In this document: in pieces, positions 739-16,799 of the stretch | Numbering within the stretch: the stretch's first letter is position 1 | Layout of the letters: every line of letters begins with the position of its first letter | DNA from: Rhizodiscina lignyota | Lineage: Eukaryota | Length of the DNA stretch: 64,000 nucleotides | Reading direction: 5' to 3' | Assembly: GCA_010015805.1 (NCBI GenBank) | Contig: ML978124.1 | Location: forward strand, 2,480,001 to 2,544,000 | The notes under the pieces: generated by a model | Databases searched by the model: none | The model's input: only the letters and a program-made list of their open reading frames with translations | What the model was told of the DNA's origin: nothing | Made by a program: the position numbers and the translations under genes

Positions 739-3700
739 CTATCTCTGCTTGCTCCTCCGGACCAGAATCAGGAGGAAGAATGCGATAACGCGATAGGTCG
801 TGCCTATCCCAAGTAGCACGACCATATCCAACCAAAATCTGCCAAACACTAATCCCAAAGCTTGTGCTGCATCATCGATCTGCCATAGATAACTGACTGG
901 CATAACGTTCTCGCTGTAGTATACCTCCGCGATCCAGACACCAGGACTAGCTCGCCAGAGCCAAGTCATGTGCCATTGTGCGACCTGGTTCAGCGTTGGA
1001 GCGAAGCCCGAGAGAATACCAACGATCAAAGATGCCATGGTGGCAAGAAGTGGGCCGTCTTCGCGACGGGTGAGCATCGAAACGCAAGATGCGAGGCCGT
1101 AAATGCAGTAATAATACAAGAGGTTGACGACGAATGCTTTCAGCCAGTCTATGCGAGGCGTAGCAAGGAGCATGAAAAAGACTGTGAAATGATAACAACC
1201 GAGGATGATGCGAGGAAGCGTAGCAATGACTTTGCCCATGTAGTACGAGAAGCGGTTGTGGCCGGAAGCCGCCTCCCGGCGGTAGGTAAGCTTCTCCTCA
1301 CCAAACACCTTCACACCTGGGGCAGAAGAGGTAAGACCAAGTGCGATGGCGACGAGGAGCGCCAGGATAGAGAGGGTTTGGTAATCGATAGATGAAGAGA
1401 GATATATGTAGTCGTCGTGATAAATGCCATGGAAGAGAGCGCCGTCTTCGCCATTAAGCGCTAGACCAATCAGGAAGCCGGCCAAAGAAGCAACACCAAT
1501 CTCGAACCAGAATGCTGCTTTGAGTCTGTATTGCTGCAAGAAGCTTCGAAGCATACAGAAGTAGAATTGGGTATAAAAAGGGGCGCCACGTCGTCTTATC
1601 GACTTCTTAAGAGAGTGTTGTTCTCCATATGCACCCTGCATTTGGGACGGTCCTCGTGAGTCTCGATTTGTGGAAATGTTCGCCCAATGCTCGATCAGAG
1701 ATTCCTTCGAAGTGTCACCAGCCCGCTTGTATGGCCGTCCTGCACCTGTTATGATATCCATCAGCGTGTCGGCGGGATTAGAGTGCTCTGGAAAGTCAAA
1801 GCCTGCACGTTCGAAGTAGCCTTGTACATCGCGCTCCTTGCCCTGGTAGATTAGCCTGCCGTTGGCGAGAAGAATCAAATCGTCAATGGCATGGAAAATC
1901 TCTTCTCGAGGCTGGTGGATAATGGTGACGACCGTTATGCCAAGTCGAGCAAGAGCTGAAAGGATTTTCATTATATGCGAGGCAGCTGTAGCATCGAGTC
2001 CAGATGTCGGTTCGTCCAGGAACAGAGCCATGGGTGCAGCGGCAAGTTCCATGCCAATGCTCACTCGCTTCCTTTGACCACCAGAAATAACAGGCTTGAC
2101 AGGGCTGCCAACGAGTGAGTCTTTTACATGGCCGAGCTGGAGGCAATCAATGAGAATGTCGACATGACGCTGAATTTCTCGGTCACCCCAGTTGGACGGC
2201 AGCCGTATGCGAGCTGAGTGCAGGATATTTTCGCGTACAGTCAATTCTGCTAGGACAATATCATCCTGGGGGACATAGCCAATAATTTTCTTGTAACTGC
2301 GCAAGTTAATTATTAATCGAGTTGGCCTGGAACGTCTGCTGGCAAACTTACTGTGACAGCTTATCGCGTACACCATTGACCTTCACAGATCCAGTGTGCT
2401 TCTGCTTGCCCATCAACACATTGACAAATGTTGATTTTCCGGCGCCAGAGCCTCCCAAAATACCCACCAGCGAGCCTCGAGATATCTCGCCGGTAATGTT
2501 GGACAATACAGGCTTTGGTGCACCTTTTGGCCAAAAGCCCAGATTATCGAATTCGAATGACAGACCGAATTGTGCACCCTCAATGCATTTGGAAAGCGAG
2601 CCTACGAATTCTCTCAAATCCGTATTGCCCTGGTCAATATCCTCCTTACTGCTAGCATCATAGGCGGCAGCGTGCATATCAAATTGGAAGTCGTCCATTG
2701 GGCCCAGAAAACCTGTTGGTGCACGTTGCATAGATCTCACACGAGGCTCGAGCTGAATTGAATCGTCGTCAAGCGTCTTGTAGCCGGTAGTTCGCTTTTG
2801 AGGCATAGAGCGTATTATCTTCGAGAATCTCGATGGTTTCCCACCCCCGGGATTCTTGCGTTTGTCATTTCGACGCTTGATTATCCAGGCGAAAAAGGTG
2901 GCCACGATGAGACCGATGTCGACGATGACTAGAAAACAGAGCGGCAGCCAAGTCTGATCTTTGATTGAACCTTCATGGCAAATGCTACCGGCACTGCATG
3001 AAACGGGTTGGTATGACCCTGCTGGACAATAGCTCCCATAGGGGCATGTAATAGGTTGTCCAGAACCCAAATCTCTGGGACAGTATTTGCCTGAAGGACA
3101 TTTTAGTGGCTCAAAGTACCCCATGGGAACACCGCAGTCGGCTCCTCCCAGCCTCCCATGCAAGCATTGTTCGACTGGCGTGCAGTATTGAGGGAGTATA
3201 TTGATTGTAGCATTCTGGCATTGGAAGCCTGGGTAACATCCTGTCTTGTTCCACGAGGTTGAATTTTGTATCGTCAGGGGAAGCGCTCCCGAGAAGCAAG
3301 TGGCCGCGGCGGTTGGTGTCTGCTTGTTTGCTATCTGCTGTTGTGCGCCGTAGTAGGATTGTGACAGTTCTGTGACATTGTGGCCGGTGCACGCTCGATC
3401 GAAGATCGAGAGAGGATCCTTTTTGACAGAGTTGAGGGCGACAAGACTCTGTCGGGAGCCTGGTTCGGCGACGAACGCTGTGTGGTTGTTCGGTCGTAAC
3501 GAGTCGTCGTTGACGGCTAGTGCGTGAGGGTCGATGGCAGAATTGTCTGTCTCAGGTTTGTACCACTTCCCAGACACTCCCTGATAGATGTTCTGATTCT
3601 TCTTATTGCTTCCAAGACATCGCCATGCTGTCGTCTGGTCGGCACCCTGGAACTCTTGAAGTGCACACAGACAATTTCCCGAGTCGATGAATTGAGGGCC

Positions 3701-3748
3701 TTCAGGAGGGCTTTCGGAGAGCGGAAGACCAAACGAGCTGAGTGACAT
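739..3748 (-). CDS. ABCG-type half transporter with N-terminal Cys-rich ectodomain and extra TM helix
   Basis: Two ORFs joined by intron 2297-2351 (GTAAGT..GCAG). Walker A GGSGAGKST, Q-loop GYVPQDD, signature ISGGQRKRVSIG, Walker B LFLDEPTSGLD, H-loop IIHQPR, then a C-terminal TM domain. The N-terminus has CPxGxYCP-type repeats and a TM helix (WLPLCFLVIVDIGLIVATFFAWII). Start is uncertain (ATG 3748, or a possible upstream exon from ATG 3869). Confidence 0.9.
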
Positions 3749-4815
3749 TATCGAATGCAATTGCCGCTCCTCGAGTCTTCCAGCGGTGCTGAGAGACGTC
3801 CAAGATCAAAGGTATAGGAGGGAGGGAAAACGCGAGCCCGGAGGACGCGAGGAGTGTAGCGAGAGCCATCGTGCAGCTGAAATTATATTTGAACTAAATG
3901 GGCGTAAGGCGGAGTCGAGTACAGGCCAGAAATTAGCTAAACGCAGCGCTGGCCAGTTCGCAAGCGTGTGGCTGAAGGGTCAAACTGGATGCGGCTGCAA
4001 CGATATGCGTCTTTTCGTCCTAACATCGACTAACGTTGTTCCGACCTTATGCCAAGCTTGGGAACGTGCGCATCTTTAGCCAGAAGCGGCATAGCGCGTC
4101 CGCGGGACTGGCTATATTTGGGGGCTGTACCAAACCCTACAACACTCCACATCTCCCTCCAACAGGCATCTTTGCCCTCCTTCGCAACAGACGGTCGCTC
4201 CATGGACTGACTTTGCGAGATCTGCAGCCGGGGCGCAGTCTGTGCCCCGCGAGCGTGCTGCATAAGTGACGTTCCTTGGTGTCTTCATCCCATCATTTGG
4301 CTCCTTCTACTCTTCATCCGCTCTTGTGCTCAAATGCCGTCAGTCGTGGATCAACCTTGCTCAGCCCTCAGTTCTTGCCCATCGCATTCCTTCGTCGAGG
4401 AGCTTGTGAACAGTCTCGTCATCGCACAGGGAAAGAAGTGCCTTTCCGCTGTTCACGCGGCCTTTACACAACATGATGCGTTTCAAAAGTAGAAGTCCCT
4501 GATGTGGGATGCCGTGAGCCCGTCCAAGATATTCCGATCGAAGTTCGCGTTTCACTTCTCTCCCTTTTTGGTCAGTCACGTTATTTACCAAGGTATGAGG
4601 TCCTTGTTTCACGAGTTATCCATTTGAAGCCGGTATGAAATTTTCTACGAACATTCTTCGTTGGCCCTTGCATAAGCGCGTCAAAGCCAGGCAAATCTAG
4701 AATGTTCAGATTCCCAGTCAGAAGACTTCTCCCTGAGATTCTCAGGAGAATATTTCACGACTCTTTTGGGAGTTAAAGCAGCTTTGGGATCGAGTTATTG
4801 TGACATACTGCCACC

Positions 4816-7331
4816 ATGCCTAGCTTCGGGACGACGAACTTTAGGACAGCGCCATTTCAGCACGCTCGAGACGGATCCGGTGGTTTCGAGCTTGGCCATG
4901 ATGCGCCGGTGTACGACATTGAAAATGGAGTGGCTCAATCATTGCCGGCCCTGGACATGCTCACGCTCAGTGCTGAACGACTTCAATCACGTTCACCTGC
5001 CGCCGCTCTCAGCAACGGTGCAGACTATCTGCAGACAGGCCAGAATGCTCTCAACATCATCATTCCGATGGGTGGAGTCGGTCAGAGATTTGCAAAGGAA
5101 GGATACCGTCATCCCAAGCCTCTGATCAATATTGTGGGCAAGCCAATGCTCTGTTGGTTGATTGAGCGGCTCTCAATCTCTCCGATCGATACTCTCTGGC
5201 TTGCAATCAATGAAGATATTGATGATGAGTTTCATATTGGGGACAGTGTCAGGATCTGGTTCCCGAAGTGCGATGTGCGGCTTGTGCGTCTGAAGTATCT
5301 CACCAAGGGAGCTGCCGAGACAGTAAGTTCGTCTGTTTGAGGTTGGATTGTCACGCGCTAATATGCATAGGTGTTTATTGTGACCCAAAGCATGCCTCTA
5401 GCCCATCGTACCAGACGAACTGTCTCCTTGGACTGCGATACGATCTACTTTGCTGATATTCTAGAGGACGTTCGCTGCATGAAGAGTGGTCATGGTGGTT
5501 GCTTCTACTTCGAAGATCAAGGAAACAAGCCCATCTTTTCATATATTCAACTATGCGAGGAGACGGGGCTCATCACAGCCATTAAAGAGAAAGAAGCGAT
5601 CTCCACCAAGGCAAACACAGGAGCGTACGTCTTCCCTTCTGCTGAAACCCTCGGCCTATGGGCAGCAAGAACTCTCGACGGCATCCTCGAATCAGAAAGC
5701 AAGCAAGTCGGCGAGTACTATACGAGTCAGTTAATTTCATCGATGATTGCGAGTAAAGAAGTCCCATTCTGCGCATTGCACGTTCGGAAAGAAGATTTCA
5801 GCTGCGTAGGAACGCCTATTCAGCTCGAAGACTTCCTTCTCAGGATCCAGAGTCAGGATGCCACCGTCAAGCCTTCAAGCCGGCGATTTTGCTTTGACCT
5901 GGACAAGACGCTCGTCGGCCCACCTCAAGTGCCCGGAGACTATTCGACGTGTCCGCCAATTTGGAGAAACATCAAGCTGGCCCGAGCTCTTCACAAAGCC
6001 GGCCATAAAATTTTGATTCACACGGCTCGCAGAATGAAAACTCACAATGGAAATGTGGGTGCAATAATTTCAGACATTGGTCTCGTCACTCTTCAGAGTC
6101 TGGAGAGGTACGGCATCCCACATGACGAGTGCAAGTTTGGCAAACCATACGCAGATGCGTATATTGACGGTAAAGATATTCAATGCTGCAAATTCTAGTC
6201 GTGATATAGCTAATGCATATTCCAGACCTTGCTGTTCACGCCAATTTGGATACATTCCGAGAGATTGGGTGGCTCGCGGAGCAAGATGCTGCGTCTGGCA
6301 GCAACCTTCTGGCAGAAGTCCATCACGCACGCAAACAGGGCATGGCCCCAAGCCGTGCTTTCAATATTGTTCAAGTCCGCGGAGAGCAGATCATCAAAAG
6401 CTCGCAGTCCGAAGCCCATATCTTAGGAGAGATGTACTTCTACAGCCATCTTCCTGACTCCATCTCAAACCTGTTCCCACAAGTGCACGAGTTGACTTAT
6501 CTCCCGGAAACAGCAACGTACTCAATCACTATGCAGAGACTTCGGGGTACAACATACTCTCATATGATCACTGGGCGATCCTTAACTCCAGGCCGGCTCG
6601 AAATCATGCTCGGCGCTCTCCACCAAATTCACAATGCGGATACAGCAACAACGAAGCAGCTGGAGGTGTGTGAGTACCTGAAGGAAAAGTTTGCCTCGGG
6701 ATCATCGAAGCCAGTGAACATTTACGCGAACTACAGCCGCAAGCTGAAGCAGCGCTTTCATCAGCACGAGGAAGTTTACGAGGAGCTCGACCTGAAGAAG
6801 GCTTCTGAGACCCTCAACATGTTGACCGCATTCCTGGAGCGTTACGAAGCTGCCAATCGAGCTCTAGAAGTACCAGTCATTCACGGCGATCCAGTCTTTT
6901 CGAACATCATACTCAACGAGTCTGAGCGGAAAGTCTATTTCTTCGACGTTCGATCTCAGCAGGGCGATGCCCTGACAATGGCTGGTGATGTCTGTTACGA
7001 TCTTGCCAAGGTGCTGCAGAGCATCCAAGGCTATGACCACGTCATGCTTACGGACGAAGAGACGTTGTCAATGCTGCCACAAACTCCTGAAGCAGATGGC
7101 CTTGCTACCATCGTCCCGGTCCAGGACCGCTTGTTAATGAAAGAGATGCAAGAAGTGTTCTGGCGATTCGTTGAACGCGAATACGGAGCGAAAATCAGCA
7201 AGCAGGACATCCTAGACATTCTGGCCAGCTTGTTGTTTTCCCTTATTCCGCTTCATCGGAAGGAAAGGCGACCACTGTTCTGGAAGATGTGCCGCAATGT
7301 CTTGGAATTCGGGTCTGCATGCCCAGTGTAA
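4816..7331 (+). CDS. Three-domain nucleotidyltransferase / HAD phosphatase / APH-choline-kinase-like enzyme (~803 aa)
   Basis: Exons 4816-5322, 5371-6169 and 6226-7331; introns GTAAGT..ATAG and GTAAAG..CCAG both keep frame. Domain 1: IIIPMGGVGQRF..PKPLINIVGKPML..GAAET..DCD. Domain 2: FCFDLDKTL, HTARRM..GNVG, FGKP, YIDDLAV (the DD is created by splicing intron 2). Domain 3: IHGDPVFSNII, FFDVR, GDVCYDLAKVLQS. Confidence 0.88.
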
Positions 7332-7534: not shown

Positions 7535-9933
7535 ATGCTGTCACTAGACCTGAGCCATTTCATGACGCCGGCGTATGCTGCCGCTCTTGGTCTGATTGTC
7601 ATACAAACAGGAATTGGTATTCTCTTCAAGGCAGCCCAGACAGGTGGAAAGTAAGCATCATATCATCTTCGAGTCTTATCAATGGACTAACCTTTGGATA
7701 GATATGCATTCTCGTCTGCATCCTCAGTTGCAATATCGGAAACGTTGAAGTTCGCCTTATCCACGGTGCGCTTTTACAGGGAGCTAAGAAGCCGGCCGAA
7801 TCCTTCTTGCAATGTAACAACCAATACCACGTCGGAGAAGCTGGAGAGCGGCGAGAAAGATGAAAGCAGCCGACGAAATTCCGAATCAAATGAATCGGAC
7901 GAAACTTTGCTTAGCGATGTCGAGGAACAGGCAGTTGCCTCAGATGACGATGCTCGACTACACTTGCGCGACTGGAAAGACTTCGGCGACTGGAGAGCCT
8001 TCTGGCAATGCTATCTTGCAGAAGTTCCGTTGGAAACACGATACGGCTTTGCGCATCTAGCACTATTATATGTGCTCATCAACAACCTGGTTTTTGTGCT
8101 CTACCGTCTCTCCGACCCTGGTACCATTTCGCTCATCAAGTCTGGCGGTACACTGATTACAGCGCTGGTCATGTATATGTGCTTGGGCACGAAGCTTGTC
8201 AAGGGGCAGTGGCTTTCTATCTTACTTCAGGTACGATTCAACTAATTTCGAGCGCAAGCTTGAATCTAGCGCTAATATAATGCAGGTATCTGGTCTCATA
8301 GTCACCCAGTACGATCCAAAGAATGGCTCATCATACCCTCTTTCCACATACAGTGTCCTGTGGTTCCATACTCTACTCAGCGCTGTCTCCGGAGTTTACA
8401 ATCAGACTCTCTGCCAGGGCTCCAAGGCATCGCTTCACGCTAACAACATGGCGCTGTACGGTCCTGGTGCTGTTACCAACGTTTGCTACTACTTCATCAT
8501 CCGCATCCTGAAGCCCGATGAGCCCGGATTCTTTTCTGGATACACCAGTATTGGTGCATTAATGGTTATATTATCGAATGTCTTCATCGGATTGGCGATG
8601 ACCGCCGTATACCAATGTATGGCTTCCTTCAATATCTCGACAGTTGGTACACTACGGGAGGACTGACTATTCTGCAGATGCGGACGCTGTGATTAAATGC
8701 TTTGCTACAGCAATTTCCACTGGTATCTTGTTATATCTTTCATACTTGATATTCGGGGCGACCTTCTCTGCTCTCGCCATACCCGGTACAGCGGTTGTTT
8801 TTATCTCAACGTATATATACATGGATTCAACACCTCCGAAGGATAGCACAGCAGCGTCTGGATCAGGCAAAGATGCGATGAATTCTGGCCTGGAGGACAA
8901 CACTGATGAAGAAAATTTACTACAGAGCTTGACTCCCAATGTATGTGTTGAAATTTCTTGGTTCACCCTGTCACTTACGCAATCACAGGGCCATCGTCGG
9001 AGTCTCGGCTTCAGTATCACCTTTACCCTTTCTGCTATGCTCATCGCCTTGCTCACACTCTGGAACTCCCATCCTCCATCTAACCCCTCTCCTTCCCCCA
9101 AGCAAGGACCCCTCCAATCGCCCTTCCGCAATACCCTCGCAATCGTCCGCTTTGAGGACCAGTACGAGACCAGTGTCGCGCCCATGGTGCTTCAAGGCTA
9201 CTCGCCGTACTTCCACAGCATGCATCTTAGCCAGGGTAACTGGGAGTCAGATGAGTCAAACGAGTTGAACATTAGTCACGACTACTTTGACACCAATACT
9301 GCGCCGTACGCACCAGTTGCAAAGATCGCACAGAAGCTTCTTGAAGAACCTGACTCTGGAATCGAAGGGATCTTGTTCTTCAAAGATACATCCTGGCTCC
9401 GACCGTTGGCTTTCGCAGAAGATACGGAGCGTATGTGGCTGCTTGACAGCCCTGACGGCCGATGCTTCAGCGGCATCAGCGCCATGGGAGGCATGTCCAA
9501 CGATGATGGAGCCAACGTCGCACCTCGCCTTGCCGTACAAGCTGCCAACACAGCGCGCGAGATGGATACCAACTATGCGATTAATCAGAATGCCTGGTGT
9601 AGTGGATGGAGCGACATGTTCTATCTTCCGCGACGGTTCTTCAAGGATTTCGTATTCCTGGGGGATATCTTTGCCAGTACTTCAGTTCCGGAGCACACTG
9701 CCATTCCGACGATATTCCACATCATTGATAATACGTATCGTCGACATCCAGCCATGTCGCTGATTGAGTTGATCGGAGACTGCTGGAATCCTAAGCATGC
9801 TGAGAGTGAAGGTGGACTGGCGGCGGAGGAGGTTGTGTGGAGACGTTGCGGCCAAGGATTTGACTATGAGAATGAGAGCGTGGTTATTGCGCATTATGAC
9901 CGGCTGGAGGAGGACGCAGCTGGTATGGAGTGA
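7535..9933 (+). CDS. Nucleotide-sugar transporter (SLC35A-like) fused to a C-terminal lumenal glycosyltransferase-like domain (~727 aa)
   Basis: Exons 7535-7650, 7702-8230, 8286-8616, 8678-8940 and 8989-9933. Splice phases are compatible, and the last intron is 48 nt, in frame and stop-free. Transporter motifs: SETLKF, ALLYVLINNL, DPGTISLIKS, SAVSGVYNQ, GFFSGY, AVYQYADAVIKCF. These are followed by one more TM helix, a P/S stem and a ~270-aa soluble domain. Confidence 0.85.
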
Positions 9934-10022
9934 GTATGCTGAAGACAGTGTTTCGAACGTAAGAACAATTCATTATTGTTTCTATATATCGGCGTTCGGT
10001 AAATATTGGGATAAAGAATGAT

Positions 10023-11174
10023 CTATTTCTCGTACACCGTCCCTTCCGCTGCTCTCACAAGCTTAAGCTCCTCGTCCAATCTTTTGAAATGCGCCTCAGC
10101 AATGTGCATCGAAGTGGCATAGTTGAGTCGATGGCCACATCGTCTCCATTCGACATCCTCCGGGATCGAAACATCGAAACAACAACTACCCCAGCAATCG
10201 GACAGACGATAGATGACAGACCGCCAGGGGGTCTTTCTTCTCCTTCGATCAATTATGTTAAATATCGTCGGCGTTGCCATCTCATGAAAGACCTCTGCCT
10301 CCGTGAAGTACCGGCTCAGAGCGATGAAGTCGCCGAAATACTGGCGCGGGATGTAGTACATGTCGCTCCATCCTGTACAGTATTCTGGACTTCCCACATC
10401 ATATCCTTCGATGCCATTTGCGATGGCCCTGAGAGCCTTCCACATGCGCCCCTCGTTATCCTCGGGCGTTTGCAACCAGTGCCATTGCGGGTAGCGGCTC
10501 TTGTCCTTCATGCATACGTAGTATGGTGCCCCGTCCCCGACACCCATACTCGCACTGTCGAGAACCCAGATGCGCGTGAAGTCCATATCAAAGAACTTCA
10601 TCGGGTCGACCCACGCATCGAAGTGCATGAACCAAACGCCTGTGATGTTTTGTACGTGGCGGTCGCCTACGAAACCTTCAGGCCCTGAATGGCCGTCGTG
10701 AGTTGCCTCGATAGGTCCTTCGGAACTGGAATTCAGAATGGAGGCCATGAGATTTGCAACGCCTTGGTAGCCCGTCCAGAAGCTCCAATAGTTGTCATGT
10801 GTGATATTGAGGAAGTATTGCTCGCCCGAATCGACGACGTTATTCGGGTGAGAGATGTGTATTGTGTGAAAGAACGGCTCGTATTGCATCAGTAGTGGTA
10901 TCCTCTCCGGGTGTGCGTCGCTATTCAATCTAATATATGCCACAGTATTCTTGAATGGCGAGACATCTCTCCTCTCGCCGGGATTGTTATGCAAGTCGGG
11001 CCCGGATGGTGAAGGAGAGAGGGTGGACGATTCCCATGTCCGCCATACTTCGTCGTACTGCTTCTTAATGTTCGAGGAATCTTGCAAATAGATCACGATT
11101 ATGAGAGTGACAAGCAGAACGTAGAGATAAATGTTGTTGCGGTGAAGGCCGGATCTGTGGAATAAGGAACCCAT
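10023..11174 (-). CDS. Type II membrane putative glycosyltransferase, paralogue of the domain fused to the adjacent transporter
   Basis: Intronless 383-aa ORF with a short N-tail, one TM (IYLYVLLVTLIIVIYL), a S/P stem and a soluble domain with WFMHFDAW, GWSDMYYIPRQYFGDF, VFHEMATPTIF, DCWGSCC and RCGH. It aligns colinearly by eye with 9118-9933. Confidence 0.8.
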   Translation of the reverse strand: MGSLFHRSGLHRNNIYLYVLLVTLIIVIYLQDSSNIKKQYDEVWRTWESSTLSPSPSGPDLHNNPGERRDVSPFKNTVAYIRLNSDAHPERIPLLMQYEPFFHTIHISHPNNVVDSGEQYFLNITHDNYWSFWTGYQGVANLMASILNSSSEGPIEATHDGHSGPEGFVGDRHVQNITGVWFMHFDAWVDPMKFFDMDFTRIWVLDSASMGVGDGAPYYVCMKDKSRYPQWHWLQTPEDNEGRMWKALRAIANGIEGYDVGSPEYCTGWSDMYYIPRQYFGDFIALSRYFTEAEVFHEMATPTIFNIIDRRRRKTPWRSVIYRLSDCWGSCCFDVSIPEDVEWRRCGHRLNYATSMHIAEAHFKRLDEELKLVRAAEGTVYEK

Positions 11175-13022: not shown

Positions 13023-16000
13023 TCACTCCGAATCATCGCCCAAGTCGATGAAATCCGGCATTCTCTCCTTCGCAGGTGTCTCCTGCCTCGCCAAGACAGG
13101 CTCTTGCGCGCTAACGCTCCTCAGCCTCTCTGTGGCTGGAGTCCTACTCGACATCCGCGAGTCCTTCGCTACCTCCTCCTTCGGCTTCCACTGCCCGTCC
13201 ATTTCAACAACAATAGCCCTTGTGTCTAGCGCATTCCTGTCTGCAAGCGCCCTGCGCACATCTACCAGAAACCCATCAACCACCAAATTCTGTGGTCTTG
13301 CATCCTCCTTGCAGATTGGACACGCCCACACATCAGGCTGGCTCACGACCGCTTCATTCGTATCCGGATCGTGGATGGTCTTGCGCGTCGCCAGGAACGT
13401 CTCAAGGTCGAAGCAGTCGCGGTGCCGGCATTTCAAGCCACGCACTGGGACATCGTAGATCGAGCATGCGGAGAAGGGGTCGAAGAGAGTGATGCTGAGG
13501 TTCGAGTCGATGATCGCGATGTCGTCGTCATCTGTCGATGGCGTAAGCGAAATCTTGATCGCATCGATGGACTGCTGTGCAGGGATGACAGCGGCGTCGA
13601 CGCACAGGCGGATTACGTCATGGGGCAGTGTTCTGACCATCTCGACGGCGAAGAGATACTGGAGTGGGGTAAGGTCAGTGGGAGGATAGTTGGCAGAGAC
13701 TTCAATTGTGTTTTTGCCCTCTTTGACGAATGGGGTGATGTCGATGGGTATGTCCTTGCCGTACGTTGACTTTTTCTTCTGTTCTGTCAAGTGTCCGTTT
13801 ACTTCAAAGTAGAGGTACGGCGGCCAGACGTTCTCGCCCATTGCCCATATGCTCTCGTCGTTTAGCACACCTTGCACTTTCCTGACGCAGCGAATACGGT
13901 ACGTGACCGCGTCGGGGAACATGTTACGGATGGGTGGCTCGCCACCTTCGGAAGGCATGTCCTGTGGTACTTGGGCGAAGACTTTAGCCGAGATTTCGAA
14001 GTCGCATGTCTTGATATATACGTTCTGGGGGAAGGCAAACGGAGCAAAAGCAAGGCCTGCCATGAACTGGTAGAGTTTTGGTTTGGTTGGCGAAGTGTTG
14101 TTCGCAGATAGCTCTCTTCTCTTCAAAGTCGGGCTGCGAAGGTGGGCGAGATGTAGTCCGCTTTTGTGGGGCTCAGGGACAAGTCGAAGTGCCTTTAGAT
14201 GGCCGACAGGAGGAAGTAGAGAGTTAGGAACAGACGGAGGAGGTTGCTGCTGAGAGGGTGCCTGCTGGTGATATACATGCAACTCTTCAGCGAGGTTTCT
14301 TTGTGCTGCAGTTTCCAGTGGTGCAGGCCACGGTTGCGGCGCGATAACCATCGTGTTCCACTGCTGAGCCGAACCTACCTGCGTCTGCACTTGTGCTGGT
14401 CGGAACATCGCCGCCGGGCCAGGAAGGACATGTTGTTGCGCCTGCGAGTTCTGCACTGGACCTGGTATCACACGTCCACCTTGTGGCTGGGCCTGTACTA
14501 GACTGTATGTGGAACGCATCGCATTTGAAGGGATCGGATGCGGATTGATCGAGACCGTCCCAGGGGGGAACATCCCAGGCGGCAGTTGCTGTCCAGGATT
14601 GCCAGTTGGGCTTGCGGGTTGTGAGAAGTTGTTGACTGGCATAACAGGCCGAACTGGATAGTTTGGGTCAAGTAATGGAGCGAGAGGACTGGTCTTCGGT
14701 TCAGCATTCAGGAGTGGATGTTCCTGATTATCTTGGTGAGAGCGTTGCAGGATTTGGTACTGTCGGATGTACCAGTGGTGAAACTCATCCACTAATGGTA
14801 CACTCATGCGACGGTTCGAATGCGCAGCAAGTATACGGTTCCACTCCTCTTGATTCTTCATGAATAGCTGTTCGGCCCTCCTGGACCAGCGGGATATACC
14901 CATTCCCCAGATGCAGCGTAAGATGGACAGGAAGACAACATTCTGAAGCACTGCCGAAGTGGCGCCAAGGATCTGCATGATTTCGTTCACTAGCGGTGGA
15001 TACTTTCGTTTTTGACATTCTATTCTGAACTTGTGCCAATTGACAACGATAAGAGTAGTGAACTTTCTGAAAGTCGAAAACTTGCTTTCAAACAAGCTCG
15101 GAGCAGATCGGGCAATCTCATGGAGCGGAGCAGGAAAGATTGTGAACCATCCAAGCACTCCTGAAGTGAGACTTTGATTCGGGGTGAGCAGAAAGTCCAG
15201 CGTCTCGCAAAGGGCTTGAAGTTGGGGTAATTCATGGATATACTGCGGTAGGGCGAAGTGATCAAAGGCTGCGAGGCAATATATCTGATGAGTCAAGAGG
15301 TATGTGATGTCTTGACGTTCGCTTGCCTGTCTTAGAAGGTTAATCCTCTGCTTCTCGAATTCACTAAGGGGCCGGATTCGATTATTGCTGGGACGGAGGA
15401 ACGAATCAATCTGTGCGATAAGCCGTTCTCGGTTGAACACTGCGTTCTGCTCGTGCTGCTGGAGCTGAGCCGGGACTGGACTCAATTGTGGGCTCACTTG
15501 TACGCGTGTGGGTGGACCAGACTGTCGCCGAAGATGCTGCGGGGGTTGTATTGGAGGTGGTACAGTTGGGCGATTGCTGGATGCTTGAGAGGCATGCTGC
15601 AAGTTTTGAGTTGACATCTGAGGCGCACTTGGGCGTCTACTTGGTACTTGAGGGGCGGGCTGTAAAGTTTGTATCGGGGGCCGAGGACCACTTGAGTATC
15701 TGATTGGTACTTGTGCAGATCGTTGCGGCCCATGAGACGTGGTAGATGAGATAGAAGGCCCATTGCCATGAGTAGTGGTAAATCGGGATTGCTCGTGCGC
15801 TTCTGGCGGACCTGGCGGCATAGAGCCCAGTGCAGAGCCTGGCTGCTGTAGCATTGGTCGACTTAGTTGATGACATGTACTTGCAGTATCCATGCTGCGA
15901 GATGGTTCTTGACGATACGCGTTTCCGACAACCTGTGCGCTACTGGTGCCTTGCGAGTGTCTAGAGCCAACATCATCATTATTGCCGGGTTCTTGGTATG

Positions 16001-16799
16001 TTTCTTCAAGATCAATTAAGATGGGCTCGTGAGCAGGCTCGGAAACAGGCGCAGGTTCTACTGCATCAATGGTGATTTGGCCCACCTTGGCAACAGTAGT
16101 TGGAGCTTCGGTCTGCCCGTCAGAATCAGTACGGCCATGATTCTCGCCACCTGCTGGCCACACTTCCGCATCGCCTGTCTCTTCTGAAAGATTGTGTATA
16201 TGTTGCATTAAACGTTGCCCATCGAGTCGAATCTGCTTAGACGGGGAAGTGGCCGGGTGCTCTCCAGGAGAGGCTGCGCGTTTAGGAGCTTGAGAGAGCG
16301 ACTTGGTGCGGCGTGTGATGTCGACCTCACTGGCCACGGTGGACGCATGTGCAGCATCTTCGCTCGTGCTTGGTGCAGGAGAAGGCAGGATGCTGCCCAG
16401 CACATTGTCTGCCTCTGCACTGTGCCTGCTACTCATGGTAGGGTTGGATCGCGAGGGAGGAGGCGGACTCGATTTCCGAGGAGCAAAGGAGTTTGGAAGC
16501 TGAGGAGAAGTGGAAGTCGAGGGCGTCTCGCGCGGAGCGACTCTGATCGTGTCATCTTCAGTCGGAGCTTGCCGTGACGTAGTTGTGGGTGGATTGCGCT
16601 GCTCTTGTTGTCGCCGCGGAGCAGGAGCATCACGTATTGCTGCTCTCGACGAAGGTGAAGAAGATGCTGCTGCTGCTCCACTCATCCATGACCTCGACTT
16701 GCCACCCAGGAACATGTTCAGAGTGGCATTGGAGGAGGCCAAGTGGTGTGCCACGGCTTGGTCCGACATATTGACGCTGGAGCGGCGGTGAGGAGACAT
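13023..16799 (-). CDS. MIZ/SP-RING zinc-finger protein (Siz/PIAS/Zmiz-related)
   Basis: 1258-aa ORF with a long P/Q/S low-complexity N-terminus. C-terminal SP-RING: ITLFDPFS..PVRGLKCRHRDCFDLETFL..WACPIC..LVVDGFL. Ends in a SIM-like FIDLGDDSE. Confidence 0.88.
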   Translation of the reverse strand: MSPHRRSSVNMSDQAVAHHLASSNATLNMFLGGKSRSWMSGAAAASSSPSSRAAIRDAPAPRRQQEQRNPPTTTSRQAPTEDDTIRVAPRETPSTSTSPQLPNSFAPRKSSPPPPSRSNPTMSSRHSAEADNVLGSILPSPAPSTSEDAAHASTVASEVDITRRTKSLSQAPKRAASPGEHPATSPSKQIRLDGQRLMQHIHNLSEETGDAEVWPAGGENHGRTDSDGQTEAPTTVAKVGQITIDAVEPAPVSEPAHEPILIDLEETYQEPGNNDDVGSRHSQGTSSAQVVGNAYRQEPSRSMDTASTCHQLSRPMLQQPGSALGSMPPGPPEAHEQSRFTTTHGNGPSISSTTSHGPQRSAQVPIRYSSGPRPPIQTLQPAPQVPSRRPSAPQMSTQNLQHASQASSNRPTVPPPIQPPQHLRRQSGPPTRVQVSPQLSPVPAQLQQHEQNAVFNRERLIAQIDSFLRPSNNRIRPLSEFEKQRINLLRQASERQDITYLLTHQIYCLAAFDHFALPQYIHELPQLQALCETLDFLLTPNQSLTSGVLGWFTIFPAPLHEIARSAPSLFESKFSTFRKFTTLIVVNWHKFRIECQKRKYPPLVNEIMQILGATSAVLQNVVFLSILRCIWGMGISRWSRRAEQLFMKNQEEWNRILAAHSNRRMSVPLVDEFHHWYIRQYQILQRSHQDNQEHPLLNAEPKTSPLAPLLDPNYPVRPVMPVNNFSQPASPTGNPGQQLPPGMFPPGTVSINPHPIPSNAMRSTYSLVQAQPQGGRVIPGPVQNSQAQQHVLPGPAAMFRPAQVQTQVGSAQQWNTMVIAPQPWPAPLETAAQRNLAEELHVYHQQAPSQQQPPPSVPNSLLPPVGHLKALRLVPEPHKSGLHLAHLRSPTLKRRELSANNTSPTKPKLYQFMAGLAFAPFAFPQNVYIKTCDFEISAKVFAQVPQDMPSEGGEPPIRNMFPDAVTYRIRCVRKVQGVLNDESIWAMGENVWPPYLYFEVNGHLTEQKKKSTYGKDIPIDITPFVKEGKNTIEVSANYPPTDLTPLQYLFAVEMVRTLPHDVIRLCVDAAVIPAQQSIDAIKISLTPSTDDDDIAIIDSNLSITLFDPFSACSIYDVPVRGLKCRHRDCFDLETFLATRKTIHDPDTNEAVVSQPDVWACPICKEDARPQNLVVDGFLVDVRRALADRNALDTRAIVVEMDGQWKPKEEVAKDSRMSSRTPATERLRSVSAQEPVLARQETPAKERMPDFIDLGDDSE

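Follow-up and report, generated by a model that had tools for sequence, protein, structure and literature searches.

Introduction

Glycosyltransferases (GTs) of the GT-A type are built on a core that passages of PMC7185993 describe as follows: the DxD motif comes after the Rossmann strands, a glycine sits in a flexible G-loop, the xED acid at the start of helix alphaF is the catalytic base in inverting enzymes, and a C-terminal His coordinates metal in part of the GT-A families. The same passages present COSMC as a GT31 paralogue without DxD and xED that serves as a scaffold or chaperone. For the STELLO proteins (DUF288, PF03385), PMC4906169 reports that they face the Golgi lumen, need their DXD aspartates and have distant relatives in fungi. 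Here we describe a locus of Rhizodiscina lignyota (GenBank assembly GCA_010015805.1, contig ML978124.1, positions 2,480,001 to 2,544,000 of the forward strand) that encodes two paralogous GT-like domains, one standing alone (STAND) and one fused to a nucleotide-sugar transporter (FUSED). The window is this whole 64-kb stretch, in which open reading frames (ORFs) were read; coordinates are window positions, and residue positions follow the 383-amino-acid (aa) STAND protein.

We found that the two domains represent a real and undescribed GT-A-like family, and that FUSED is exceptional in losing near-invariant positions of this family, which STAND keeps. The best explanation of the locus, to which we give a probability of about one half, is an activate-import-transfer cassette in which an active standalone transferase works beside a pseudo- or rewired transferase carried by the transporter.

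The two domains are convergent paralogues

FUSED (7535 to 9933, + strand) is a 743-aa model with exons at 7535-7650, 7702-8230, 8286-8616 and 8678-9933. The exons join through GT..AG introns of 51, 55 and 61 nucleotides (nt) into one open frame, the last of them within the 429-aa ORF 8644-9933 (+), and the model is colinear with full-length homologues (tblastn). Its degenerate GT-A-like domain spans 9118 to 9933 (+), where 9118 is the first codon of SPFRNT. STAND (10023 to 11174, - strand) is a single uninterrupted ORF, identical to database protein P0001 and predicted to be a type II membrane protein with a canonical GT-A-like domain. The two genes lie tail to tail, with their stop codons facing each other 89 base pairs apart.

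A single BLASTP comparison of STAND and FUSED gave 131 bits, 29% identity (89/302) and E 6e-39; by this alignment, their similarity lies far beyond chance. A preliminary description of the locus, made from its letters, had proposed a convergent paralogue pair on the strength of eight colinear motif pairs and four divergent spots (HFDAW/KDTSW, VFHEMA/VPEHTA, DCWGSCC/DCWNPKH and CGH/CGQ). All eight pairs and all four spots are present in the BLASTP alignment, and the pair stands. Since STAND and FUSED fall into different subclades of the family tree (below), they appear to be old paralogues. A recent tandem (inverted) duplication was rejected, given the low identity of the copies and their different subclades.

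Both domains are predicted to have a GT-A fold

We modelled both proteins with AlphaFold2 (AF2), from a 15-row alignment for STAND (predicted local distance difference test, pLDDT, 76.5) and a 65-row alignment for FUSED (pLDDT 81.6, mostly >90 in the domain). In a structural search of representatives (VIA), STAND matched the galactofuranosyltransferase AfGfsA (8yrl) with Z 12.7, a root-mean-square deviation (rmsd) of 3.6 and 205 aligned residues, and further matched xylosyltransferase 1 (6ej8, Z 12.2), C2GnT-L (2gak, 11.8), Manic Fringe (2j0b, 11.8) and B3GalT5 (11.6). Its nine best rows were all glycosyltransferases, with nucleotidyltransferases next at Z ~8-10.5. FUSED matched 9q8z_B, chain B of the CHSY3-CHPF complex, with Z 14.6 (rmsd 3.7, 205 aligned), followed by AfGfsA 8yrl (13.5) and Fringe 2j0b (12.8). 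Foldseek returned 61 matches to FUSED at E<=1e-3; those listed are GT-A enzymes and include BoGT6a, CHSY3, CpsY, A64R and C2GnT. For the shallower STAND model, there was no Foldseek match at E<=1e-3, the best being 1.1e-3, and the weak matches were all GT-A enzymes. Hence, from the VIA and Foldseek matches, both copies are predicted to have the GT-A fold, with GT31/GT14-type enzymes as the nearest, and the guess of a GT-like domain was borne out for STAND and FUSED alike.

This likeness of fold comes without a relation at the sequence level. Pfam and NCBIfam did not recognise the domain in STAND or FUSED, and hmmscan, run on 15 and later on 65 family members, returned transporter families only and no glycosyltransferase model. 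The hidden Markov models (HMMs) Galactosyl_T, Fringe and Branch matched 0/65 family members. Among PDB sequences, phmmer and a 60-sequence profile gave chance-level rows only and no related solved chain. By HMM matching, then, the domain falls outside GT31, GT14 and DUF288, in agreement with the earlier suggestion of an unclassified, possibly new family.

GT31 enzymes (Fringe, B3GalT5/6, B3GNT2, C1GalT1 and AfGfsA) and GT14 enzymes (C2GnT-L and XT1) are the best structural matches of both models, with Z 11-14.6, ~200-235 residues aligned and rmsd 3.6-4.4, and they share with the window domains the order DxD-place, G-loop, xED-place and C-terminal His. In contrast, sequence identity to them is 5-11%, neither HMM nor profile searches matched them, and the window family has HxD instead of DxD together with a conserved Cys cluster.

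Nucleotidyltransferases have the GT-A-like fold as well (UAP, GlmU, ISPD and IspD, at Z 9-10.5), and the Foldseek matches include the phosphotransferases CpsY (8.8e-5) and GNPTAB (3.9e-4). In addition, the nucleotidyltransferase part of the gene next to FUSED has weak matches to MobA-like and IspD models, and the transporter comes from the cytidine monophosphate (CMP)-sialic acid/uridine diphosphate (UDP)-sugar family. The family could thus be something other than a classical glycosyltransferase, namely an enzyme that transfers a phospho-sugar or phospho-alcohol, or one that resembles nucleotidyltransferases, with a cytidine diphosphate- or other nucleoside diphosphate-linked donor. We consider this improbable: the best rows of both models are of the GT31/GT14 type and stand 2-4 Z units above the nucleotidyltransferases, and the order HxD, G-loop, HE, C-terminal His fits a GT-A transferase core.

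The preliminary description had also suggested a resemblance to STELLO/DUF288, which have type II or lumenal Golgi GT-like domains, as is predicted for the window domains. Among the ESM Atlas look-alikes of STAND is a cluster, 49% of whose members bear PF03385 (feature score 0.97), and STELLO clusters reached template modelling (TM) scores of 0.60/0.56 and 0.59/0.72 against the Atlas's own STAND model, values that come without an alignment or E-value. An Ascomycota "UDP-galactose transporter" cluster of ~900 aa had TM 0.67 to STAND. However, PF03385 matched 0/15 and 0/65 family members at E<=10, a setting at which HMMER filters still discard most matches above about 0.1, and three database searches, two of them later word-index searches with profiles (one from the most divergent members), yielded no PF03385-labelled protein. 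Unlike the window family, STELLO proteins are not transporter fusions, and the family has a signature of its own, HFDxW / GWSD / HE / CWGxCC / CGH. The STELLO link is therefore kept as a lead, with STELLO-bearing clusters among the nearest Atlas look-alikes, and not as membership.

FUSED has lost near-invariant positions that STAND keeps

We aligned 157 database proteins and the two window proteins to the family profile, counted each column over covering sequences only, and used 28-32 further sequences as a second conservation set. In the first part of the domain, H184 is kept in 99/115 sequences (second set 32/32), D186 in 110/112 (32/32) and D271 in 103/103 (29/29); FUSED has K, T and D at these positions. 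H297 is kept in 95/114 (18/29) and E298 in 108/114 (29/29), where FUSED has E and H. Among the C-terminal residues, C327 (103/106; 28/28) and C346 (103/105; 28/28) are kept in FUSED, and C331 (97/106; 28/28), C332 (94/105; 28/28) and H348 (101/105; 28/28) are replaced by K, H and Q, respectively.

At eight key positions (186, 271, 298, 327, 331, 332, 346 and 348), 56/66 covering sequences read D-D-E-C-C-C-C-H. STAND is fully canonical there, and FUSED reads T-D-H-C-K-H-C-Q, so that five of eight near-invariant positions are changed. All of the 17 further fungal homologues are canonical (17/17), as are the metagenome loci that cover the motifs (HFD 12/12; HE, CC and CGH 10/10). These counts agree with the earlier proposals that the candidate catalytic positions are near-invariant in the family, that D186, E298, C331, C332 and H348 are lost in the fused copy of the window and that the standalone copy retains its motifs. 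The idea that the loss is limited to this one copy failed, as 10/66 full-coverage sequences deviate at one to five key positions, and the view of the fused copy as degenerate holds for the five lost positions and not for the invariant Asp of GWSD, which it keeps.

The changes in FUSED are concentrated in three motifs. FKDTSWLRP (9379 to 9405, +) has H184 changed to K, D186 to T and D190 to R, with an Asp one residue before the lost D186. VPEHTA (9685 to 9702, +) has F296 changed to P, H297 to E and E298 to H, the order of the last two being swapped, and AF2 helix 350-365 starts at its Glu. DCWNPKH...RCGQ (9778 to 9855, +) holds the changes of C331 to K, C332 to H and H348 to Q. The fragment P0114 (168 aa, 70% identical to FUSED) has an identical FKDTSWLRP and is the only other sequence with Thr at 186. 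Hence, since the motif recurs in an independent sequence, it is not a sequencing artefact, and the derived state is real and shared by at least one other genome or sample.

The positions of the STAND motifs suggest what these residues may do. In MHFDAWVDP (10602 to 10628, -), H184-x-D186 comes directly after strand 179-184 (DSSP), at the DxD place; this place reads H-x-D in STAND and the family and K-D-T in FUSED, an assignment made by position only. GWSDMYYIPR (10344 to 10373, -) offers a G-loop-like glycine (G268) and the invariant D271, and G268-W-S-D271 precedes strand 272-276. In VFHEMA (10275 to 10292, -), H297-E298 lies in the first turn of helix 297-312 (DSSP), and E298 is a candidate xED base. 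DCWGSCC...RCGH (10131 to 10199, -) contains the Cys cluster and H348, the candidate C-terminal His, with C346-G-H348 in the C-terminal part and CGH 50 residues after HE. From these positions, we read HxD as the putative metal/donor site at the DxD place, E298 as the likely base and H348 as the candidate C-terminal His. If so, FUSED would be without metal binding and without the base.

The losses in FUSED have parallels among described pairs. The best structural row of FUSED is a chain of the complex of CHSY3 with CHPF, which we take to be the inactive partner of CHSY3. With C1GALT1, COSMC is a folded paralogue without DxD and xED (PMC7185993, passages cited above), and in FUSED, likewise, the residues at the DxD and xED places are lost in a confidently folded paralogue (D186 to T, E298 to H). 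Unlike COSMC and CHPF, the degenerate copy FUSED is covalently joined to a transporter, and its binding to STAND is hypothetical. Because it lacks the Asp of the DxD place, the Glu of the xED place, both vicinal Cys residues and the C-terminal His, the FUSED domain is most likely a pseudo-glycosyltransferase that still folds, or has at least ceased to be a metal-dependent enzyme like its ancestor.

The FUSED domain diverged more than its transporter

Our quick maximum-likelihood tree covers 65 domain sequences and excludes fragmentary rows; its support comes from the Shimodaira-Hasegawa-like approximate likelihood ratio test (SH-aLRT), and its root was placed for drawing. FUSED groups with the degenerate P0070 and P0075 (SH-aLRT 91), which are altered at the H184 and HE positions; P0070 is transporter-fused. 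The placement of FUSED is unsure because of its long end branch, 1.61 vs a median of 0.71. STAND joins P0048 and P0053, both standalone type II proteins, and the fused P0058 (SH-aLRT 89).

The transporter half of FUSED has a mean identity of 44.7% to 26 other fusions, which is ordinary for the set, and the domain has 30.9%. This gap of -13.8 points between domain and transporter is the most extreme of 27 full-length fusions. Hence, constraint has changed on the FUSED domain specifically.

Such a disproportionate divergence, with the long branch and the lost conserved positions, would also be seen if the fused domain were a functionless relic, the transporter half alone mattered and the standalone gene had replaced the domain. 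However, ~270 codons are open without a stop, the 70%-identical orthologous fragment P0114 shares the derived motif, many family motifs are kept in a model with pLDDT mostly >90, and truncation would be expected if the domain were dispensable. We therefore regard a relic as very doubtful.

Several points weigh against the best explanation and its inactive FUSED domain. The GWSD..PR motif and D271 are intact, an Asp adjoins the lost D186 and a Glu the lost E298, each one residue earlier, and HE is swapped to EH rather than deleted; residual or altered activity of FUSED is thus possible. Since the domain is confidently folded and conserved with its orthologue, it has some function, which could be enzymatic. 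The passages of PMC7185993 also note that GT14 and bacterial GT6 enzymes lost DxD and remain active, working metal-free. In addition, the roles of D186, E298 and H348 were assigned from motif order and secondary-structure position only, the tree support comes from quick-search SH-aLRT and includes a long FUSED branch that leaves the grouping unsure, and in the literature we found no characterised member of the family, be it by donor, acceptor or activity.

These points feed an account in which the fused domain is still active in a rewired form, metal-independent or with another donor or acceptor, and the pair would be two enzymes that act in sequence on one glycan. The active GT14 and bacterial GT6 enzymes without DxD keep this account alive. 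In its favour, basic residues (K and R) stand at the H184 and D190 positions of FUSED, its relatives P0070 and P0075 keep D186 and share the VPH change, and its best Foldseek matches include the metal-independent BoGT6a and C2GnT. Nevertheless, we judge a rewired enzyme unlikely, though less so than a relic: five of eight near-invariant positions changed at once, even the distant protist branch has the Glu that was lost from the xED place (29/29), and the domain diverged far more than the transporter half. A folded pseudo-glycosyltransferase remains the preferred reading of the FUSED domain.

Transporter fusion is the usual architecture of the family

A word-index search found 14 proteins, one of which was the window's own. 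With an exhaustive profile search of cluster representatives, we obtained 735 at E<=1e-3; cut-offs of 1e-10 and 1e-30 left 320 and 122, respectively. Of the 735 representatives, the best 150 were examined. The transporter family PF04142 lies upstream of the domain in 25/29 long or selected representatives, with no Pfam family in the other 4, and in 15/17 further fungal homologues. In 13 metagenome loci, the transporter is directly upstream on the same strand in 11, and the other 2 begin at a contig edge. The family thus usually occurs as a transporter fusion, normally with canonical motifs, and standalone type II forms (STAND, P0048 and P0053) are a minority clade. Hence, the family in general needs no standalone partner.

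Named records come from Colletotrichum, Verticillium, Fusarium, Xylogone, Paramyrothecium, Cadophora, Ophiocordyceps, Hirsutella, Exophiala and others. The fungal records are called UDP-galactose, CMP-sialic acid or UDP-N-acetylglucosamine (UDP-GlcNAc) transporter, or hypothetical protein. Several hundred proteins annotated just as "UDP-galactose", "CMP-sialic acid" or "UDP-GlcNAc transporter" carry a second, GT-A-like domain without a Pfam model. A natural fusion of transporter and transferase would be direct, genetic evidence for coupled donor import and transfer in the Golgi, and a canonical and a degenerate copy in one window offer a built-in contrast for the roles of conserved residues and for the pseudo-enzyme question. 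In the literature, we found no description of a transporter-glycosyltransferase fusion of this kind; PMC10013753 concerns unrelated, TPT-type transporters.

A divergent, non-fused branch (P0176-P0186) includes a Prymnesium parvum protein. It has N-A-E in place of F-H-E and keeps HFD, GWxD, CWGxCC and CGH. Accordingly, the family is older than fungi or moved between lineages.

Many fragments (P0002, P0064, P0065, P0072, P0079, P0084, P0087, P0088, P0090, P0095, P0097, P0114, P0115 and others) all stop at one place, immediately behind the conserved C-x-G in front of WSD. The shared end suggests a conserved intron at this place in other species; both window genes are uninterrupted there. A further observation concerns P0025 (1080 aa), in which a C-terminal NAD-dependent epimerase/dehydratase domain follows the transporter and the GT-like domain; this may reflect either a genuine fusion of three parts or gene models that were merged.

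Both domains are predicted to face the Golgi lumen

The nucleotide-sugar transporter half of FUSED (7535 to 8850, +) belongs to PF04142, which matched the FUSED exon ORFs with E 1e-4 and 1.5e-6. Among the exon ORFs scanned, 8196-8666 reached 28.0 bits vs a cut-off of 27, and 7694-8245 reached 22 bits. The half is colinear with residues 20-380 of P0015 at 43-61% identity, and P0015 itself matches PF04142 with E 8.4e-29. A disordered linker joins the transporter to an extra predicted transmembrane helix (8995 to 9063, +; hydrophobic score 2.04; AF2 helix 118-141), after which the domain follows. Within the linker, an in-frame 48-nt stretch with GTATGT...CAG ends (8941-8988, +) is a possible optional intron, and the frame is kept either way.

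STAND has one predicted hydrophobic helix, an N-terminal signal anchor at residues 13-31 (11082 to 11138, -; hydrophobic score 1.96), within a long N-terminal AF2 helix at 9-51. At N123 it has an N-x-S/T sequon that 75/105 and 17/31 homologues share, and the family conserves six cysteines. The C-terminus of such nucleotide-sugar transporters is cytosolic, and since the extra helix follows the transporter, the FUSED domain would be lumenal. With a cytosolic transporter C-terminus, the STAND and FUSED domains would therefore both face the Golgi lumen, and the conserved sequon and cysteines agree with this topology.

We also predicted a complex of STAND 68-383 with FUSED 150-429. The score was 0.05 vs a mark of 0.34 in a run that did not use our alignments and had no controls, and it is no evidence either way.

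An upstream trifunctional gene may supply the donor

Upstream of FUSED lies a trifunctional gene (4816 to 7331, +) with an 803-aa model, exons at 4816-5322, 5371-6169 and 6226-7331, and an open spliced frame. It combines a nucleotidyltransferase, a HAD phosphatase and an APH-like kinase. The N-terminus matches a sugar-phosphate nucleotidyltransferase model (NTP_transf_3, 1.8e-4) and has a GxGxR-type motif, the HAD phosphatase matches the capsule biosynthesis phosphatase TIGR01689 (6.3e-13) and has a DxDxT motif, and the APH/choline-kinase-like kinase (APH, 1.7e-4) has an HGD..N motif. The PDB sequence matches were 1xpj (126-aa HAD-like, 5e-15), 9iqw ("capsule biosynthesis protein") and weak nucleotidyltransferases only. 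ESM Atlas look-alikes with this domain mix come from Ascomycota, bacterial capsule loci, phages and giant viruses, and our literature search found no description of the trifunctional enzyme or of entry 9IQW.

The MupP/AmgK/MurU route makes UDP-N-acetylmuramic acid by means of a HAD phosphatase, an APH-family anomeric kinase and a sugar-1-phosphate nucleotidyltransferase. The upstream gene has the same three activity types, and MurU is among its weak NCBIfam matches (E 0.004). Unlike that route, the upstream gene fuses all three in one eukaryotic polypeptide, and all its matches are weak. By this analogy, we suggest that the trifunctional enzyme may convert a sugar phosphate into a nucleotide sugar.

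The same three parts recur on the 120-kb contig L011 as one 855-aa ORF that is 46-62% identical to the window gene and lies ~2 kb from a canonical transporter-domain fusion. On the other side of this ORF is a GT90 gene (Glyco_transf_90, E 3.4e-10; L011 1270-3186, -), which hints at a larger glycan cluster in L011; the window ORFs scanned contained no GT90. The linkage of the family to a phosphatase-kinase-nucleotidyltransferase gene, and in one relative to GT90, suggests a fungal glycan and a donor that are still undescribed.

Together, the genes would form a three-gene glycosylation cassette of a filamentous ascomycete. The trifunctional enzyme (phosphatase, anomeric-type kinase and nucleotidyltransferase) would make an activated sugar, or a related nucleotide-linked donor, in the cytosol; the PF04142 half of FUSED would carry this donor into the Golgi; and a lumenal GT-A-fold transferase of the undescribed family, distantly STELLO-like, would use it. 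In most species, the transferase would be the canonical C-terminal domain of the transporter itself. In the window genome, catalysis would most likely fall to the adjacent type II STAND, with its HxD, GWSD, HE, Cys cluster and C-terminal His. The analysis shows the paralogy and fold of the two domains, the conservation across the family, the losses and uneven divergence of FUSED, and the linkage of the genes; we infer the catalytic motif roles, the lumenal topology, the inactivity of FUSED and any physical pairing of STAND and FUSED. The docking subunit proposed in the preliminary description, with the fused copy tethering the active standalone enzyme to the transporter, is hypothetical.

A bolder reading, which we offer as tentative and rather unlikely in its entirety, extends the cassette to the whole family. 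Pezizomycotina and a protist branch would carry an unrecognised GT family, normally as a covalent transporter-transferase fusion that channels the donor in the Golgi. A trifunctional enzyme devoted to this fusion would supply an unusual nucleotide sugar, destined for an undescribed fungal glycan. In the window genome, the pseudo-enzyme on the transporter would recruit the neighbouring standalone enzyme to the transporter mouth.

Neighbouring genes

The window has short GT..AG introns, as expected of fungal DNA, and the domains Fungal_trans and Fungal_trans_2 occur elsewhere in it. An ABC transporter with ABC2_membrane_7, split over two ORFs, immediately precedes the cassette on the opposite strand (739-3760, -). 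A low-complexity protein of 1258 aa at 13023-16799 (-) has a MIZ/SP-RING zinc finger (E 5.9e-8, slightly below the Pfam cut-off); it is probably SUMO-ligase-like, and it is unrelated to the cassette.

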